Shown: in pieces, positions 1 through 8,786 of the stretch
Position numbering within the stretch: position 1 is the first letter of the stretch
How the letters are laid out: each line of letters opens with the position of its first letter
DNA from: Spirochaetia bacterium
GTDB taxonomy: Bacteria; Spirochaetota; Spirochaetia; DSM-2461
Direction of reading: 5' to 3'
Assembly: GCA_963668315.1 (NCBI GenBank)
Contig: OY764216.1
Span: 1,024,001 to 1,088,000 of the forward strand
DNA: 64,000 bases
The notes under the pieces: generated by a model
Database searches by the model: none
Seen by the model: only the letters and a program-made list of their open reading frames with translations
Told to the model about the DNA's origin: nothing
Program-made: the position numbers and the translations under genes

Positions 1-185
1 CTATTAAGCCTTTCTTATGCCCTTTTTCGGGTAGAAGAAGGGAGAAATAATGTCTAACAAAACGTATGACAAAATTCGGCGATTGTCAAGAAAATCGGCG
101 AATTAGCCCTCTCGAAAGGATTTGCTAACATATCTCTAACAGATTTTCCTTGATGAATCGGAAAAACTACCCTAATATCCAGTCT

Positions 186-1067
186 ATGGATCATTTGGAT
201 GAATTAGAAAGTCTGAGCATACATCTGCTCAGAGAGGCATACGCCAACTTCAACAATCTATGCATGCTTTGGTCGATTGGAAAGGACTCCACCGTGCTTC
301 TGTGGCTGGCCAGGAAAGCTTTCTACGGCCACGTTCCTTTTCCTCTGGTGCATATCGATACGTCATACAAAATCCCCGAGATGATTGAATACCGGGACCG
401 TCTGGCGGCGGAATGGAAGCTCCCCATGGTTTACGGGGAGAATAAGGATGTCCTTGAGAGGGGAGACACTTTTCCCAACGGCAAGGTAGACCGTCTGACC
501 TGCTGCGCCACCCTCAAGGCGGAAGCTCTGAAAAATACCCTGTCCGGCGACTGGACGCGCTACCGCTTCAACCACCGCAAGGGAAGCTACGAAGTGGACA
601 GCGATACGGAGATGTACACCGGCGTCATTGTGGGTGTGCGGGCCGACGAAGAGGGCTCCCGTTCCAAGGAGCGCTATTTCTCTCCCCGTGATAAGGAGAA
701 CAGCTGGGACGTGGGTGATCAGCCCCCGGAATTCTGGAATCAGTATAAAACCGACTTCGCTCCCGGCACCCATGTGCGCATCCATCCTCTTCTGGACTGG
801 ACGGAGCTGAATATCTGGGAATATATCGAAAGGGAAAATATCCCCACCGTTTCCCTCTATTACAATCAGGGCGACGGGATAAGATACCGCTCCCTGGGCT
901 GTATGCCCTGTACCAATCCGGTTGAGTCCGATGCCCGCAACGTCCGGGAGATCATCGATGAGCTGAAGACGGGTAAATTCGCCAATATCGCCGAGAGATC
1001 CGGACGGGCTCAGGATCAGGAAGACGGCGGCGGACTGGAAACTTTGAGACGGGACGGGTACATGTAA
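186..1067 (+). CDS. cysD: Sulfate adenylyltransferase subunit 2
   Basis: SIGKDS motif, HIDT, '[17 protein letters not shown]', 'YRSLGC', 'ERSGRAQD...GYM' end; start moved to ATG 186 (MDHLDELE); overlaps cysN start. Confidence 0.95.
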
Positions 1068-2884
1068 TGAGCAGCGCCATGAAAGAACAGATGAATATTG
1101 TAATTACCGGTCACGTGGATCACGGGAAAAGTACGGTAATCGGACGCATGCTGGCCGACACGGACAGCCTGCCCGAGGGCAAGCTGGAATCGGTCAAGAG
1201 AAACTGCGAACGCAACTCAAAACCCTTCGAATACGCCTTTCTCCTGGATGCTCTCAAAGACGAGCAGGCCCAGGGTATCACCATTGACGCCGCCCGGGTT
1301 TTCTTTAATACGGAAAAGCGGGACTACATTATCCTCGATGCTCCGGGACATATCGAGTTCCTGAAGAACATGGTTACCGGAGCGGCCAGGGCCGAAGCGG
1401 CCTTTCTGGTCATAGATGCGGACGAGGGAATTCAGGAGAACTCCCGCCGCCACGGTTACCTTCTGTCCATGCTGGGGATCCGGCAGCTGTGCGTTATCGT
1501 AAATAAAATGGACCTGGCCGACTACTCCCAGCGGGTTTACAAGCAGATTGAGCGGAAGTACACCCGCTTTCTGAAGAACCTGGATATGACCGATGTCTCT
1601 TTTATTCCCGTCAGCGGCAGGGAAGGGGATAATATCGCCTCCCTGAGCGAGAATATGCCCTGGTGGACAGGAGATACGGTTCTCTCCCTTCTGGATAAGT
1701 TCAAGAAAGAGGAAAAGCCTACCAGGCTGCCTTTCCGTATGTCCGTTCAGGACGTGTATAAGTTCACCAACGAGGGAGACAACCGTCGCATCATTGCGGG
1801 AACCATCGATTCCGGTGTACTGAACAGGGGGGACGAGCTTATTTTCTACCCTTCGGGAAAGAAAAGCCGGGTGGATTCCATCGAAGTTTTCAACGGAGAT
1901 CCCCTGGAGTCGGCCGAACCCGGCATGGCCACGGGTTTTACCATGACCGAACAGATTTACGCCAAGCGGGGTAACCTTGTCGCCAAGGTGGGGGAAAAAC
2001 AGCCCCAGGTGGGCAATGTTTTTCGTGTCAGCCTTTTCTGGCTGGGGAAAAAGCCCCTGGAAAAGGGTAAGGAGTACATCCTCAAGGTGGGAACGGACCG
2101 GGTCAAAATGCAGCTTTTCGATACGATTCGGGTCATAGATGCTTCCAATTTGAATACGGACAGCATGAAGAAGATCGTCGGGCGCCATGATGTGGCCGAA
2201 TGTGTGTTCACCACCAACCGGGCCATCGCCTTTGATCTGGTGGAGGACCTGCCCAGCGCCAGCCGTTTTGTCATCGTTGACGATTATGAAATAGCCGGCG
2301 GCGGAATCATCCGCGAGGTGGTGAAGGACAGTATGGCCGGACACCGGCAGGATTCCATTCACCGCAATTTCAGCTGGGAAACGGGCAATATTTCCGTATC
2401 GGAAAGGGCCCGTGCCCTGGGACACAAATCCCAGCTTCTTCTGGTGACCGGCGAAGCCTCCGTGGGCAAGAGCGAACTGTCCAAAGCGCTGGAACGGCGT
2501 CTTTTTGACAGGGGCTGCCACGCCTTTTACCTGGGGATCGCCAGTTTCTTCGGAGAAGGGGACGATTCCGAATACGGGGACAGCCGACGGGGACGCCGCC
2601 TGGCCGCCCATGAGCGGGAAGAGATGATCCACCGCCTGGCTCTTATGGCGAAGATGTCCATGGAGGGAGGGGGAATTCTTATCGTTTCCTGTCCCGAGCT
2701 GACCGCCGAGGAGAGGGAGGTCGTAAGCATAGCCCTTGATCCCCACGGAATGAAGACTATCTGGCTCGGAAAGGAGATATCCACCGATCTGAAGCCGGAT
2801 TACCAGATTGCCAATCCTGCGGAAGCTGTTACGGAAGCGGAGAAGGTGGAGAAACTTTTACTTGATGAGGACATCATCCTCTGA
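1067..2884 (+). CDS. cysN: Sulfate adenylyltransferase subunit 1 (EF-Tu-like GTPase) with C-terminal APS-kinase-like domain (CysNC-like)
   Basis: [23 protein letters not shown]; second P-loop 'TGEASVGKS' in the C-terminal domain; follows cysD. Confidence 0.9.
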
Positions 2885-2910
2885 TTCTACTTAATAAACA
2901 AGGAGCGCCT

Positions 2911-4191
2911 ATGGCCTTTGAAAAAACGAAATATACCGTTAAATGCCTTTCCTGCGGGAAAGAGATCAGCGATGCCGATTATCCTCTGGGATGCCCTTCC
3001 TGCGAGAAGCCGGGTTTTATCCGGGCGGAATATGATAAAAGGCAGATTGATTTCGGCGCGAGCGAAATGGGGCTTTACCGTTTCGCCGACTGGCTCCCGG
3101 TTAAACGGGCTCTGGCCGGTTCGGGTGCGCCGATAACCTATAAGAGCAAGGCCTTCGCCGAAGAACTGGGCCTTACGAACCTGTGGGTTACTTTTAACGG
3201 ATGGTGGCCCGAGAAGGGCGCCCATATGAAGACGGGCGCTTTCAAGGAGTGCGAAGCCTATTCGGTCTGCGGCCGTATGGGCGAGGATTTCAAGGATACC
3301 CTGGTCGTGGCTTCCGCCGGTAATACGGCCCGCGCCTTTGCCCGGGTCTGTTCGGAGAACAACATTCCCCTCATCCTCTGCGTTCCCGAGGATAATATTG
3401 ATGCCCTCTGGTTCGATAAGAAACTGAATGATTGCGTTAAAATGTACTGCACCGAATCGGGAAGCGACTATTTCGATGCCATCGCCCTTTCCAATAAGGT
3501 GTGCGCCCTGGAGGGATTTGTTCCCGAGGGGGGAGCCAAGAATATCGCCCGGCGGGACGGTATGGGCACCACCGTTCTGAGCGCTGCCGAAGCGATGGGA
3601 GCGATTCCGGAGTACTATTTCCAGGCCGTGGGAAGCGGCACCGGGGCCATCGCCGCCTGGGAGGCCATGCAGAGACTTCAGGCGGACGGACGATTCGGCT
3701 CCAATAAGATGAAGCTGATGGTTTCCCAGAATGTTCCCTTTCAGCCGATCTACGATTCCTGGAAACAGGGCGGCCGGGCTATGGTGGAACTGGACAGCGA
3801 TCTGGCCCGCGAGCAGGCCGAGGCCGTCATCGGGAAGGTCCTGACCAACAGAAAACCCCCTTACAGCCTGGCGGGCGGTCTGTACGACGCCCTCGTCGAT
3901 ACGGACGGGGACGTGCTGGTCGTTACCAATGAAGAGGCGTCCCAGGCGGGCGAGCTTTTCAAGGAGCTGGAAGGGAACGACCTTTCCCCTGCCGCATCCG
4001 TTGCGGCGGCTTCTCTGATTCAGGCTGCCGAGGCGGGACTGGTTCCCAAGGACGGCCGGATTATGTTAAATATTACGGGCGGTGGAATGGAAAGATTCAT
4101 GTCTGAGCATGACATGCATTTCCTGCAGCCGGTCCATGTTTTTTCCAAGGAGCCCTCTGAGGAAGAGGTCGCCCGGGAACTTTTGAAATAA
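2911..4191 (+). CDS. Cysteate synthase (PLP, threonine synthase-like)
   Basis: N-terminal CxxC pairs, 'TGAFKECEA' PLP lysine, 'ASAGNTARAF', 'RRDGMGT', 'YFQAVGSGTG', 'LTNRKPPY', 'LNITGGG' as in archaeal/Bacteroidota cysteate synthases; follows cysDN. Confidence 0.85.
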   Translation: MAFEKTKYTVKCLSCGKEISDADYPLGCPSCEKPGFIRAEYDKRQIDFGASEMGLYRFADWLPVKRALAGSGAPITYKSKAFAEELGLTNLWVTFNGWWPEKGAHMKTGAFKECEAYSVCGRMGEDFKDTLVVASAGNTARAFARVCSENNIPLILCVPEDNIDALWFDKKLNDCVKMYCTESGSDYFDAIALSNKVCALEGFVPEGGAKNIARRDGMGTTVLSAAEAMGAIPEYYFQAVGSGTGAIAAWEAMQRLQADGRFGSNKMKLMVSQNVPFQPIYDSWKQGGRAMVELDSDLAREQAEAVIGKVLTNRKPPYSLAGGLYDALVDTDGDVLVVTNEEASQAGELFKELEGNDLSPAASVAAASLIQAAEAGLVPKDGRIMLNITGGGMERFMSEHDMHFLQPVHVFSKEPSEEEVARELLK

Positions 4192-4192
4192 A

Positions 4193-4281
4193 GCGTTAAG
4201 GGGCAGGGATAGAAGCGGTTATGGCCCCCGGGGCCATTCGAGCGGATAGCCCGGTGCGCGCGGTTCGCGCGTCAGCCCCCC
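4193..4281 (-). repeat. Structured intergenic element, copy 1 (Flavo-1-like)
   Basis: Minus strand reads CCGGGCTATCCGCTCGAA-stem-CCGCTTCTATCCCT; shared core with copies at 28957 and 47291. Confidence 0.65.
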
Positions 4282-4321
4282 AACCTGAAAGAAATTGAAT
4301 ATCAACGATTAGGAGTTGAAA

Positions 4322-5620
4322 ATGGCAGATATTTTTGATAAATGCAAAGGCGACGGGGGCTACTTCGGTGCGTTCCGTCATATGGGTGAGAATGAACTGA
4401 CTCGGCCGATCATGGACCCCATTTCGGGCACGAAGATGATCCACAACGGGGAAGAGCATATCATGTGGTCGGTCAATAACTATATCGGCCTGGCCAACAA
4501 CGAGGAAGTCCGGGCGGCGGCTCTGAAGGCTGTTGAGGAATTTTCCACCAGCAACCCCATGGGCTCGAGAATGATGAGCGGCAACACTCCCTATCACCTG
4601 GCACTGGAGAAGAGATTTGCCGAGTTCGCCCAGAAAGAGGCGGCTTTCCTTTTCAACTTCGGTTACATGGCCGTTCTGGGAATCGTTTCCTCCCTGGCCG
4701 GTATGGGCGATACGGTTGTCGTCGATAAGCTGGCCCACGCCTGTATCCTCGACGCGGCGGGCATGGCCAAGGCGGCCGGCGCCAATCTGCGCTACTTCAA
4801 ACACAACGACGCCAAGGACCTGGACAAGGTTCTGGAGAGCGTTAACAAGACCAATCCCGACGGCGGCGTTCTTGTCCTGACCGAGGGTGTTTACGGAATG
4901 ACAGGAGACCTGGCGGACCTGAAAAGCATCTGCGAGGTGAAGGATAAGTGGGGCGCCCGTCTTTTTATCGATGATGCTCACGGTATCGGCGTTATGGGCG
5001 AGAACGGCCGCGGTGCGGCTGATTTCTTCGGCGTACAGGACAAGATTGATATCTACTTCGGTACTTTTGCCAAGGCCTTCGCTTCCATCGGCGGTTTCTG
5101 CGCCTGTGACAAGGACGTGCGTGACTGGATCATGTTCAACGCCCGCACCCAGGTTTTCGCCAAGTCCCTGCCCATGGTTTATGTAAAAGCCCTGGATAAG
5201 ACTCTGGATCTGGTCATCGAGAGACAGGATCTGAGAGACAAGATGTGGGAAAACTCCAAAAAGCTTCAGGACGGTCTGCGGAACGAAGGTTTCGCCATCG
5301 GACCGGGAGACTCTCCCATCTGTTCCGTTTTCTGCCCCGTGGGCACGGAGAAGGCCGATGACGCCGGCGGTGTCGGCGCCCGGATGGTTCAGTACCTGAG
5401 AGCCAAGAAAATTTTCGTTACCGCCGTCGTTTACCCCGTTATTCCTCCCGGACTGTGCATGTTCCGGATGATCCCCACCGCGGCTCACAACGATGAGGAA
5501 ATCCAGACGACGATCGGGATTTTCAGAGAGATGAAGAACGAGCTGAACCTGACTCTGCCCTGTACCCCCGAGGACCAGGCCAAGATCGATAAGCTCTACC
5601 GGTGTAATCCGGAAGCGTAA
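4322..5620 (+). CDS. Alpha-oxoamine synthase (SPT/BioF family), probable cysteate C-acyltransferase
   Basis: 'NNYIGLA', 'GSRMMSGN', 'HACILD', 'FKHND', 'DDAHGIG', 'GTFAKAF' PLP lysine; 'FAKSLP' in place of SPT-type F(S/T)ASLP; next to cysteate synthase. Confidence 0.75.
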   Translation: MADIFDKCKGDGGYFGAFRHMGENELTRPIMDPISGTKMIHNGEEHIMWSVNNYIGLANNEEVRAAALKAVEEFSTSNPMGSRMMSGNTPYHLALEKRFAEFAQKEAAFLFNFGYMAVLGIVSSLAGMGDTVVVDKLAHACILDAAGMAKAAGANLRYFKHNDAKDLDKVLESVNKTNPDGGVLVLTEGVYGMTGDLADLKSICEVKDKWGARLFIDDAHGIGVMGENGRGAADFFGVQDKIDIYFGTFAKAFASIGGFCACDKDVRDWIMFNARTQVFAKSLPMVYVKALDKTLDLVIERQDLRDKMWENSKKLQDGLRNEGFAIGPGDSPICSVFCPVGTEKADDAGGVGARMVQYLRAKKIFVTAVVYPVIPPGLCMFRMIPTAAHNDEEIQTTIGIFREMKNELNLTLPCTPEDQAKIDKLYRCNPEA

Positions 5621-5744
5621 AGGAAAGGGAGGGGGAGTTATATTGAAAACAGTATAATTCCTCCAGCTTACAGAGATGTGGCAACGTTAGGGGAATGAGT
5701 TAAATTGAAAACTATATAATTCCCCCTTATTTTTAGATTTTATG

Positions 5745-5778
5745 ACCGCGGGAACTTACATGTCTTCGCGGTTTTTTT
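5745..5778 (+). terminator. Intrinsic terminator
   Basis: ACCGCGG...TCGCGGT stem followed by T7. Confidence 0.7.
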
Positions 5779-5828
5779 GTTTATAAAGAGTCCTTGGTCT
5801 ATAATTAGAATCAAAGGTAGGGAATAGG

Positions 5829-6938: not shown

Positions 6939-8786
6939 ATGAAAAAACAATTAGTCTTATTTCTGGGATGCATATCCTTTGCATCACTTTTCTTCAGCTG
7001 CGGGAATCTGTTTGATAACGGTTCCTCCGATAAGGATACAACTGTTCCTGTCGGATATTCTGTCATAATTGATCAATCCGTGATAAATGCTTCGAACACA
7101 TCGGCTTTTTCCTTCACCCTTTCCAATGCAGAAATTGGTACGACCTGCTCGTATATTATTGATGATGAAGATTCTGCTACCTCTGCGGTAACAGGTTCAT
7201 CAGCTATTACTGCTACGGATCTAACGATTAGCGGAATAGATGTTTCCCCCCTAAGCGATGGTAACATCAGCCTTACTGTATCACTGACAGATGCAGCAGG
7301 AAATGTGGGAGAAAGCACCTCTATTCAGACTGTTGCAAAAGATACGGTGGCTCCTTCGGGATATTCTGCGGTTATAGGGCAGTCTATCATTAGTTCTGAT
7401 AATGCAACAGCTATGTCATTTGCTCTTTCTGGTGCAGAAGCGGGAGCGACATGTAACTATACGATTAATGATGAAAACTCTGCTAACTCTGCTGTTACAG
7501 GAACAGTAGCTGTTTCCGCTTTGGCACAGAATGTCAGTGGAATTGATGTTTCTTCACTGAGCGATGGAACTCTCTATCTTACAGTTTCTCTTACCGATGC
7601 GGCAGGAAATCAGGGTCTAGCTACTACAGAAGTTACCGTCTTGAAAGATACGATAGCTCCTGACAATCAGAATACTGTTATTTCTGCAGATGCCACTCTC
7701 TATAATGATGAAACATTAGCCATTGCGAGCTCCGGTGATGAGGATAATACTATATGGCTCGCTCCCTACGGTACAACCTCATTTATTGAGGGAGCGCAAA
7801 TGACTAAAGCTTCTGGAATCGCCACGTCAATTTCCGTACCGACTGCAGAAGGCACCTACTATATTTTCGTAATTGATGGGGCGGGTAATATTTCTCCTGA
7901 ATCTACCTATGAAGTCGTTGTCGAACTTAGGACCTATAGCTTTTCCAATGCTTCGGCTACGGGAAGACAGGGCCCTGATCAGAGTGCTGTCGATTCGGCG
8001 TATTTGGGAACGCTTCTTAATGGTGATGTTACGGTTACCGATACAGGTATCCAGAAGTGGACTGTACCGAAGACAGCCACCTATCGCATTACTGCTATGG
8101 GTGCTTCCGGAGCCAATGCCGGGAGCTATGGAAAGGGAGCAAAAATCGAAGGTGACTTTGAGCTGACTGCCGGTGATATTCTTTGGATCCTTGTTGGCCA
8201 GCAGGGGGGGGGGCTCTATAAAGCTTATGCTCAGATGGGAGGAGGGGGAGGCTCTTTTGTCTCTACAGGAACCTCTCTCCCTGATAGCTCTCTCCTTATG
8301 GCTGCTGGTGGTGGTGGTGCCGCTGGAGCTAATGCTAACGCTAAATGCAACGGCCAGGCGTCTACCGCTGGAAGCTCCGGCTATGATCATGATGACATCA
8401 GCAATAATGACGGCGGTGCCGATGGAACTGCCGGTGATACCGGGGCAAATGCCGGGATGGATGCTGCTGCAGGTATTTTGAAAGAGTTCTCTCTCTCCAC
8501 GGAAGCCCAAAGTTTCTTCGACGGAGGTCTTGGCTCCGAGGTTACTGATAGCTCGGCTAATAATGGCGATGGAGGCTTTGGTGGTGGCGGAGCCAGAATA
8601 AGCGGAACCGGTTATGCTACCTCTGGCGGGGGCGGCGGATACTCCGGCGGTGGAGCTTCAGACGATATTAACGGAATGCCCTTCTATGGCGGAGGCGGCG
8701 GCTCCTACAACACAGGAACCAACCAGTCTAACACGGCCGGAGGAGCTGATCTGGGACACGGATCGGTAACAATAATTCAGTTATAG
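6939..8786 (+). CDS. Surface lipoprotein with tandem Ig-like repeats and C-terminal glycine-rich (ALK/LTK-like) domain
   Basis: Lipobox 'FFSC'; two 102-aa repeats containing 'SLTDAAGN'; 'GIQKWTVPKTATYRITAMGASG' plus multiple GGGG tracts. Confidence 0.75.
   Translation: MKKQLVLFLGCISFASLFFSCGNLFDNGSSDKDTTVPVGYSVIIDQSVINASNTSAFSFTLSNAEIGTTCSYIIDDEDSATSAVTGSSAITATDLTISGIDVSPLSDGNISLTVSLTDAAGNVGESTSIQTVAKDTVAPSGYSAVIGQSIISSDNATAMSFALSGAEAGATCNYTINDENSANSAVTGTVAVSALAQNVSGIDVSSLSDGTLYLTVSLTDAAGNQGLATTEVTVLKDTIAPDNQNTVISADATLYNDETLAIASSGDEDNTIWLAPYGTTSFIEGAQMTKASGIATSISVPTAEGTYYIFVIDGAGNISPESTYEVVVELRTYSFSNASATGRQGPDQSAVDSAYLGTLLNGDVTVTDTGIQKWTVPKTATYRITAMGASGANAGSYGKGAKIEGDFELTAGDILWILVGQQGGGLYKAYAQMGGGGGSFVSTGTSLPDSSLLMAAGGGGAAGANANAKCNGQASTAGSSGYDHDDISNNDGGADGTAGDTGANAGMDAAAGILKEFSLSTEAQSFFDGGLGSEVTDSSANNGDGGFGGGGARISGTGYATSGGGGGYSGGGASDDINGMPFYGGGGGSYNTGTNQSNTAGGADLGHGSVTIIQL
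7032..7643 (+). repeat. Two tandem 306-bp (102-aa) Ig-like repeat units
   Basis: KDT..P at 7032, 7338 and 7644; units share 'GYS', 'SAVTG', 'SGIDVS.LSDG', 'LTVSLTDAAGN'. Confidence 0.85.

Follow-up and report, generated by a model that had tools for sequence, protein, structure and literature searches.

A conserved operon of a spirochaete likely leads from sulfate to the long-chain base of capnine-type sulfonolipids

The window analyzed here is a stretch of 64,000 nucleotides from a Spirochaetia bacterium (assembly GCA_963668315.1, contig OY764216.1, positions 1,024,001 to 1,088,000 of the forward strand). Near its start lies an operon of four genes, cysD, cysN, a cysteate synthase gene and an acyltransferase gene, which is real and conserved. 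Judging from the encoded proteins, sulfate is likely the starting material from which this operon builds both head group and long-chain base of capnine-type sulfonolipids, with the help of an adenosine 5'-phosphosulfate (APS) reductase, SerC, a short-chain dehydrogenase/reductase (SDR) and a vicinal oxygen chelate (VOC) protein of the same genome. A capnine pathway had been proposed in an original prediction made from the letters of the window, and homology, active-site residues, trees and gene context all speak for it. The operon would represent known chemistry in a new phylum and a new arrangement, together with an accessory VOC gene.

We infer the reactions in this organism, sulfonolipid production included, from the genes, their families, residues, tree positions and co-occurrence. 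CysDN would activate sulfate to APS, and the APS reductase (C1:4794417-4795418, C1 being the host contig) would release sulfite. The cysteate synthase would add sulfite to O-phosphoserine from SerC, and the last enzyme of the operon, of the CapB/SulA type, would condense cysteate with a long-chain acyl-acyl carrier protein (acyl-ACP), producing 3-ketocapnine. The SDR would then reduce 3-ketocapnine, and the VOC protein, a putative metalloprotein, is predicted to act at the same stage. Coordinates are collected in Table 1.

The acyltransferase is most similar to enzymes that act on cysteate. In the Protein Data Bank (PDB) it ranks CapB (28EH, 324.7 bits) and SulA (7U7H, 311 bits) ahead of serine palmitoyltransferases (SPT, at most 214 bits) and BioF (at most 176 bits). 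Against NCBIfam, it passes no cut-off for SPT, BioF, Kbl or 5-aminolevulinate synthase (ALAS); its best score there is with an SPT model, the SPT models giving 308, 277 and 236 against cut-offs of 500, 640 and 670. The QVFAKSLP motif singled out in the original prediction is located at residues 277-284, and its K281 aligns with the lysine found at position 281 of SulA and 280 of CapB, where SPT have alanine; the loop thus reads FAKS and not F(S/T)AS. The sulfonate-binding role suggested for this lysine needs correction, since its published role is structural: it is reported to wall off the active site and the K281A variant of SulA still binds cysteate (PMC9304779), the sulfonate contacts being Asn52, His139 and Lys250 (PMC13692747).

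To compare the pockets, 19 active-site positions taken from PMC13692747 and PMC9304779 were mapped onto 107 aligned enzymes. Seventeen of the 19 positions named for CapB are identical in the acyltransferase. Within the cysteate pocket of CapB (N52, G81, A82, F113, G114, Y115, H139, C141, H219, T247, K250, M277 and F278) it departs only at A82, which is Ser, and at M277, which is Val (its own residue 278), a position that varies among Bacteroidota. N52, H139 and K251 are also kept. So is the set that distinguishes cysteate acyltransferases (CFAT) from SPT, namely F113-G114-Y115, C141, E188, F246, A250 and K281, which differs in all six SPT-like rows and in the single Kbl row.

Phylogeny gives the same placement. 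In an IQ-TREE analysis of 40 rows, chosen from the 107 aligned enzymes plus five added, the acyltransferase groups with 34 other lysine-bearing enzymes and apart from the SPT-like and Kbl rows (support 100/99). The suspected kinship with SulA and CapB, as opposed to SPT and Kbl, is thereby borne out; the tree holds no BioF row, and BioF is set apart by the PDB ranking only. The enzyme falls outside the clade of the phylum Bacteroidota (18 rows, 100/99); the clade that holds it (13 rows, 100/99) unites Spirochaetota, Clostridia and Marinimicrobia. Support for the larger non-Bacteroidota grouping is weak (81/39). A FastTree of 89 rows, from which 18 of the 107 enzymes, mostly near-duplicates, had been dropped, agrees with IQ-TREE and follows genus lines within the family. 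A recent import from Bacteroidota is not supported, as the acyltransferase lies outside the Bacteroidota clade.

Related enzymes were also seen elsewhere. In a genome titled Proteobacteria, a divergent acyltransferase whose loop reads FSKA has an SDR and a fatty acyl-AMP ligase as neighbours (L029:6938-9729). Spirochaete SPT-like enzymes with an FSAS loop (L105-L110, L120) score 495-520 bits against NF047600 (cut-off 640) and often lie beside an SDR. One genome (G021) holds both an SPT-like enzyme and a cysteate acyltransferase.

The cysteate synthase matches 9K3C, deposited in the PDB as a cysteate synthase, with 534.9 bits over residues 3-422, and threonine synthases with at most 49 bits. 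Alistipes and Odoribacter likewise use the archaeal-type cysteate synthase (PMC10191378). For sulfate activation, the original prediction of a dedicated cysD-cysNC pair stands in part: the CysD and CysN families are confirmed, but the CysC part is degenerate. The kinase tail matches PF01583 with 23 bits over 92 of 152 positions (219 for the second genomic cysNC), its GSGKS and LDGD motifs are missing in the window and in all 11 operon relatives, and the bifunctional CysNC model NF004035 gives 417, below its cut-off of 715. With this domain degenerate, the operon would supply APS and not 3'-phosphoadenosine 5'-phosphosulfate (PAPS). The second cysDNC, which is intact, sits in a polysaccharide cluster of the host.

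The host APS reductase has the N-terminal CxxC domain and scores 250 with TIGR02055 (against 235.3), and SerC is above cut-off. The siroheme sulfite reductase family PF01077 was found in 0 of 1 host genomes (96.95% complete), with 11 of 14 in the control. Given an APS reductase and SerC and no PF01077 match, cysteate would be the obvious sink for sulfite. The operons of relatives include a source of sulfite, as cysH directly follows the acyltransferase gene in L003-L005 and L084-L092; aprAB lies in the operon of four clostridial loci. The clostridial order is VOC-cysteate synthase-acyltransferase-SDR-aprA-aprB (L013, L015, L017, L026), and two further loci (L012, L014) have acyltransferase-VOC(-SDR) with no synthase nearby. 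A coenzyme M route was considered and dropped, no sulfopyruvate decarboxylase ComE scoring over its cut-off. Distant cysteate-synthase-like genes, both under cut-off, were seen at L180:12393-13721 (genome G091, 132 bits), where the gene adjoins VOC-cysH-cysD-cysN, and at G105:C134:12508-13521 (121 bits).

The four genes are intact reading frames on the + strand, as originally described, and the start of cysN overlaps the stop of cysD by one base. Their order is found again in six of the 31 nearest named loci and in five of nine long stretches around the acyltransferases of relatives (L111, L112, L116, L117 and L118 of L111-L119), a recurrence that is not due to chance. CysD is 77-94% identical among operon relatives, and the operon is intact in 9 of 11 sampled genomes of the genus Oceanispirochaeta. 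Over the 61 relatives from the class, the acyltransferase is present in 30 at an identity of at least 49% (one of them a remnant) and the synthase in 28, and each of two same-family genera has neither gene in any of its four genomes. Counts over related genomes are not independent, so that co-occurrence counts here and below stand for few events. That patchy spread, with the two empty genera and decay in one relative (G016), could be read as a silent or dispensable leftover of gene transfer. We consider this very improbable, as the four frames are intact, gene order is kept across the family at 57-94% identity, the GC content of 0.54-0.57 compares with 0.51 for the genome, and, inside the family, the tree branches by genus.

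The host itself is a spirochaete, as the original prediction had supposed, and not a member of Bacteroidota. Its genome, a single contig of 5.62 Mb, carries three FlaA genes, and relatives from its own genus and family correspond to loci titled Spirochaetales, Spirochaetaceae and Oceanispirochaeta. Six loci titled 'Eubacteriales' or 'Aminicenantes' (L016, L019, L021, L023, L024, L028) have a near-identical gene order that includes outer-membrane beta-barrel genes, and some of these titles are for that reason probably wrong. Just 3' of the operon, Oceanispirochaeta-type genomes carry a fusion of about 1,115 residues joining 2-oxoacid dehydrogenase E1 alpha and E1 beta, a lipoyl domain and FabH (L003:10919-14257, L004, L116:10283-13657, L119, L178); the host has no full-length orthologue.

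The partner most closely linked to the acyltransferase is the VOC protein. Clustering the neighbours of the 31 nearest acyltransferase loci returned the VOC in 16, the synthase in 15 and an SDR in 9. The VOC occurs in 31 of the 61 class relatives; in the 44 of high quality (completeness of at least 90%, contamination of no more than 5%), the 22 genomes with the VOC are also the 22 with the acyltransferase, a match that rests on seven or eight genera. The full 61 show three mismatches, all in genomes that are 71-80% complete. Decay of these genes was seen twice: G016 has degraded copies of both, separated by 4 kb, and in G046 the VOC is frameshifted and the acyltransferase intact, the synthase being found in neither genome. 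In a sample of 151 Bacteroidota, the VOC is present in 28 of the 53 genomes with an acyltransferase match (6 of these 53 were checked for the lysine motif) and in 0 of the 98 without. Its steadiest neighbour is one SDR subfamily, adjacent in 19 of 23 loci. Of 562 metagenome loci centred on the VOC, the best 80 were examined, and 38 of these 80 have a close SDR (at least 40%) within 5 kb. In one genome (L155) SDR, acyltransferase and VOC form an overlapping run. We regard the VOC as a well-supported accessory gene and likely an overlooked part of the sulfonolipid pathway, to which it very probably belongs. Two other associations were discarded. A tie to the archaeal-type synthase fails because only 2 of 50 genomes pass TIGR03844 and 23 of the same 50 have the VOC, and a TlpA-like neighbour of the VOC gives a thioredoxin-domain match only.

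The structural model of the VOC protein (pLDDT 94) resembles four-module VOC proteins, with Z scores of 25.4, 24.5, 24.4, 22.3 and 19.6 against PcpA (4HUZ), 1ZSW, 3OAJ, monomeric glyoxalase I (6BNN) and GLOD4 (257-274 residues aligned, root-mean-square deviation 2.7-3.8, identity 13-16%). Foldseek TM scores are 0.54-0.61 for four-module folds as against about 0.28 for 4-hydroxyphenylpyruvate dioxygenase (HPPD). The protein differs from those of the same fold by a basic C-terminal tail, with 11 K/R and 2 D/E in 36 residues, which contains its most amphipathic window and suggests contact with the membrane. PF00903 is above cut-off in the orthologues; similarity searches for a function gave no NCBIfam match, no informative PDB sequence match and, in the Atlas, only clusters of unnamed VOC proteins. 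Across 37 VOC sequences, Q9, E71 and E310 never vary and H259 hardly does, presumably reflecting a site with four ligands as in glyoxalase I and methylmalonyl-CoA epimerase and not the triad of dioxygenases. Many carriers appear to be anaerobes, which disfavors an oxygenase role. Our best single guess, which we rate on the unlikely side, is a metal-dependent isomerase or lyase working on 3-ketocapnine, for instance a C2 epimerase beside the reductase. Stereochemical control is a real issue, as the reduction of ketocapnine gives two epimeric products (PMC11211663). A broader proposal, to which we give slightly less than an even chance, is that an old and separate, spirochaete-centered lineage of capnine enzymes was passed to Clostridia and Marinimicrobia, and that the membrane-facing VOC is an undescribed 3-ketocapnine enzyme (an epimerase, a lyase or the missing acylation step) in about half of the producers.

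The original prediction saw no APS/PAPS reductase, ketocapnine reductase or N-acyltransferase in the window. This holds for the window itself, but the host genome has the APS reductase described above as well as a candidate ketoreductase; an N-acyltransferase was not found. The candidate SDR is assigned by grouping and co-occurrence: it is present in 19 of 22 high-quality acyltransferase carriers and in 2 of the 22 others. A metallophosphoesterase gene (C1:755256-756320) adjoins the candidate, and its orthologue lies beside the acyltransferase in two loci (L006, L008). For N-acylation, Bacteroidales offer a candidate capnine N-acyltransferase, a PF01553 gene of about 443 residues that precedes SDR-VOC in all five fetched loci (L164-L168); a related gene lies within 5 kb in 18 of the same 80 metagenome loci. 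With the queries used, the host has no orthologue of this Bacteroidales type. A spirochaete gene cluster of the bacterial ceramide type, with an epimerase-fold reductase, a 399-residue GNAT and an SPT-like gene, was noted at L120:1574-5152 (G037).

Several findings weigh against the capnine reading. Within the operon, Ser82 of the acyltransferase is SPT-like, the position being Ala in all Bacteroidota rows of the 107-enzyme alignment; one Bacteroidota acyltransferase (L155) also has Ser there. CFAT specificity is not set by few residues (PMC13692747), the group to which the enzyme belongs contains no assayed CFAT, and identity to Bacteroidota relatives is 40-46%. Ser82 and the best NCBIfam score (an SPT model, albeit at 308 bits far below the cut-off of 500) are what could be expected if the last gene encoded an alpha-oxoamine synthase for serine or glycine, with cysteate put to another use, for example in a soluble sulfonate or in a product resembling coenzyme M. 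We give this very little weight: the enzyme retains Lys281 and the rest of the CFAT positions and falls with CFAT in the PDB ranking and in trees, spirochaetes have true SPT-like and Kbl genes that group separately, ComE is not over cut-off in the host, and 15 of the 31 nearest loci have the synthase as an adjacent gene.

The remaining points on this side concern the partners and the product. The VOC is lacking in 25 of the 53 acyltransferase-bearing Bacteroidota, in the Capnocytophaga, Flavobacteriaceae and Chitinophagaceae genomes of a sample of 50 (23 have it), and in 7 of 25 non-Bacteroidota acyltransferase carriers (of these 7, five instead have an epimerase-fold reductase next to the acyltransferase); the VOC is therefore not a universal step. 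Two candidate N-acyltransferases do not track the pathway. One, a GNAT (query L120:2676-3872) that we call CerS-like after what we take to be its family fold, was not found in the host or its genus and is present in 30 of the 61 relatives overall; the other, a spirochaete PF01553 acyltransferase, occurs in 50 of the 61. Finally, the intact polar lipids tabulated for Oceanispirochaeta M1 and M2 comprise glycolipids, phosphatidylcholine, phosphatidylglycerol, cardiolipins and an unknown phospho-sugar lipid, with no capnine in that table (PMC11129491, Table S46), and the same paper names capnines for Lutibacter. The table covers one growth condition and positive ions, for strains of the host's family that may or may not carry the operon.

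This table would fit a variant in which the first steps run as described and the product is other than classical N-acyl capnine: a free base, a lipid made under stress only, or a remodeled one, for example if the VOC eliminated or exchanged the sulfonate on 3-ketocapnine. The host, in the searches made, has neither a CerS-like nor a pathway-specific acyltransferase, several relatives have a TetR gene flanking the locus, and a beta-sulfo-ketone would be chemically primed for elimination. Conversely, the Bacteroidales PF01553 gene before SDR-VOC, in the fetched and metagenome loci alike, suits a diacyl lipid, and the 2-oxoacid dehydrogenase-FabH fusion 3' of Oceanispirochaeta-type loci suits fatty acyl supply. 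We consider the variant unlikely, and capnine-type sulfonolipids remain the reading that we prefer.

Around the four genes, the promoter match is weak, and matches of its class are not above chance (5 found, 3.8 expected). Its portion TGACAAAA..TGTCAA is common to L002 only, and 11 upstream sequences compared gave no clear common regulatory motif. The repeat between the synthase and acyltransferase genes is not conserved in the operon and folds no better than shuffles (z -1.16). For the hairpin repeat that follows the operon, 31 sites match across the genome at up to 3 mismatches, compared with 0 in a shuffled 1-Mb strand, and several of these matches are tandem with a 37-base period (C1:252887-253035, 4041437-4041585, 1933273-1933384). 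The terminator that the original prediction placed at the end of the operon is recovered by folding; a consensus scan gave no terminator on the + strand beyond 5620. Farther on, positions 6939-8786 of the window hold a lipoprotein-like gene of 615 residues, with adhesin-type domains in repeated copies and a C-terminus rich in glycine (NF033510, weak match).

Table 1. Features of the operon (window coordinates) and putative partner genes on the host contig (C1).
Feature	Position	Strand	Basis or remark
cysD, sulfate adenylyltransferase small subunit, 293 aa	186..1067	+	NF003587, 352.5 bits (cut-off 195)
cysN with degenerate, probably inactive APS-kinase (CysC) tail, 605 aa	1067..2884	+	TIGR02034, 340.7 vs 336.1
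Archaeal-type (threonine-synthase-like) cysteate synthase, 426 aa	2911..4191	+	TIGR03844, 493.9 (cut-off 324.9)
Cysteate acyl-ACP/CoA C-acyltransferase (CapB/SulA/CFAT type), 432 aa	4322..5620	+	PDB ranking, residues, tree
Candidate 3-ketocapnine reductase (SDR)	C1:756329-757123		Host genome; groups with pathway-linked SDRs, best host match to them
Four-module VOC (glyoxalase-fold) protein, about 350 aa	C1:1718616-1719668		Host genome, outside window
Sigma-70-like promoter match, 9/12	66..95	+	Weak
Dispersed REP-like (repetitive extragenic palindrome) repeat between synthase and acyltransferase genes	4200..4290	.	Similar stretches elsewhere in genome, best E 9e-11
Dispersed hairpin repeat, two copies, core GTTATATTGAAAAC..TATAAT	5631..5726	.	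First copy folds with z -5.09
Terminator-like GC-rich hairpin and T run closing the operon	5744..5779	+	Folding z -3.05; 1/200 shuffles as good

Three known systems help to situate the operon. Alistipes finegoldii has the same pair of enzyme families, an archaeal-type cysteate synthase (PMC10191378) and SulA (7U7H, PMC9304779), with Lys281 kept; the window operon, by contrast, is found in a spirochaete, includes cysDN, has Ser for Ala at position 82 and occupies a separate branch of the tree. The reductase genes are reported to be scattered in A. finegoldii and C. gleum (PMC11211663). In Capnocytophaga, CapA-CapB-CapC (PMC13692747, PMC10191378) includes CapB (28EH/28FA), the top PDB match, which shares the 17 of 19 pocket positions; the host has the archaeal-type synthase in place of the CapA type, and the sampled Capnocytophaga genome has no VOC. 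The bacterial SPT or ceramide pathway (3A2B, 2JG2; Spt-CerS-CerR, PMC9304779) shares the fold-type I scaffold and the reaction type, but SPT score far lower in the PDB ranking and carry Ala where the window enzyme has Lys281, and no CerS-like GNAT was found in the host.

Sulfonolipid synthesis appears limited to Bacteroidota in a 2023 review (PMC10191378), and capnine is treated as a Bacteroidota lipid (PMC12927429, PMC11193023). A 2024 survey of gut genomes kept 9,633, comprising 9,632 Bacteroidota and one Firmicutes (PMC11525784), and loose homologues have been listed in 13 phyla by permissive cut-offs (PMC11211663). Our literature searches, with incomplete coverage of primary papers and supplements, brought up no paper describing sulfonolipids in spirochaetes or placing a VOC protein in this pathway.

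Sulfonolipids bear on gliding, choanoflagellate development and TLR4 signaling. The presence of a conserved operon in free-living spirochaetes adds to the organisms that may supply these lipids in anoxic sediments and makes the lipids less reliable as markers of Bacteroidota. For the late part of the pathway, neither the order of reduction and acylation nor the identity of the acyltransferase is settled (PMC9304779), and the SDR-VOC-acyltransferase linkage provides named candidates for these steps.

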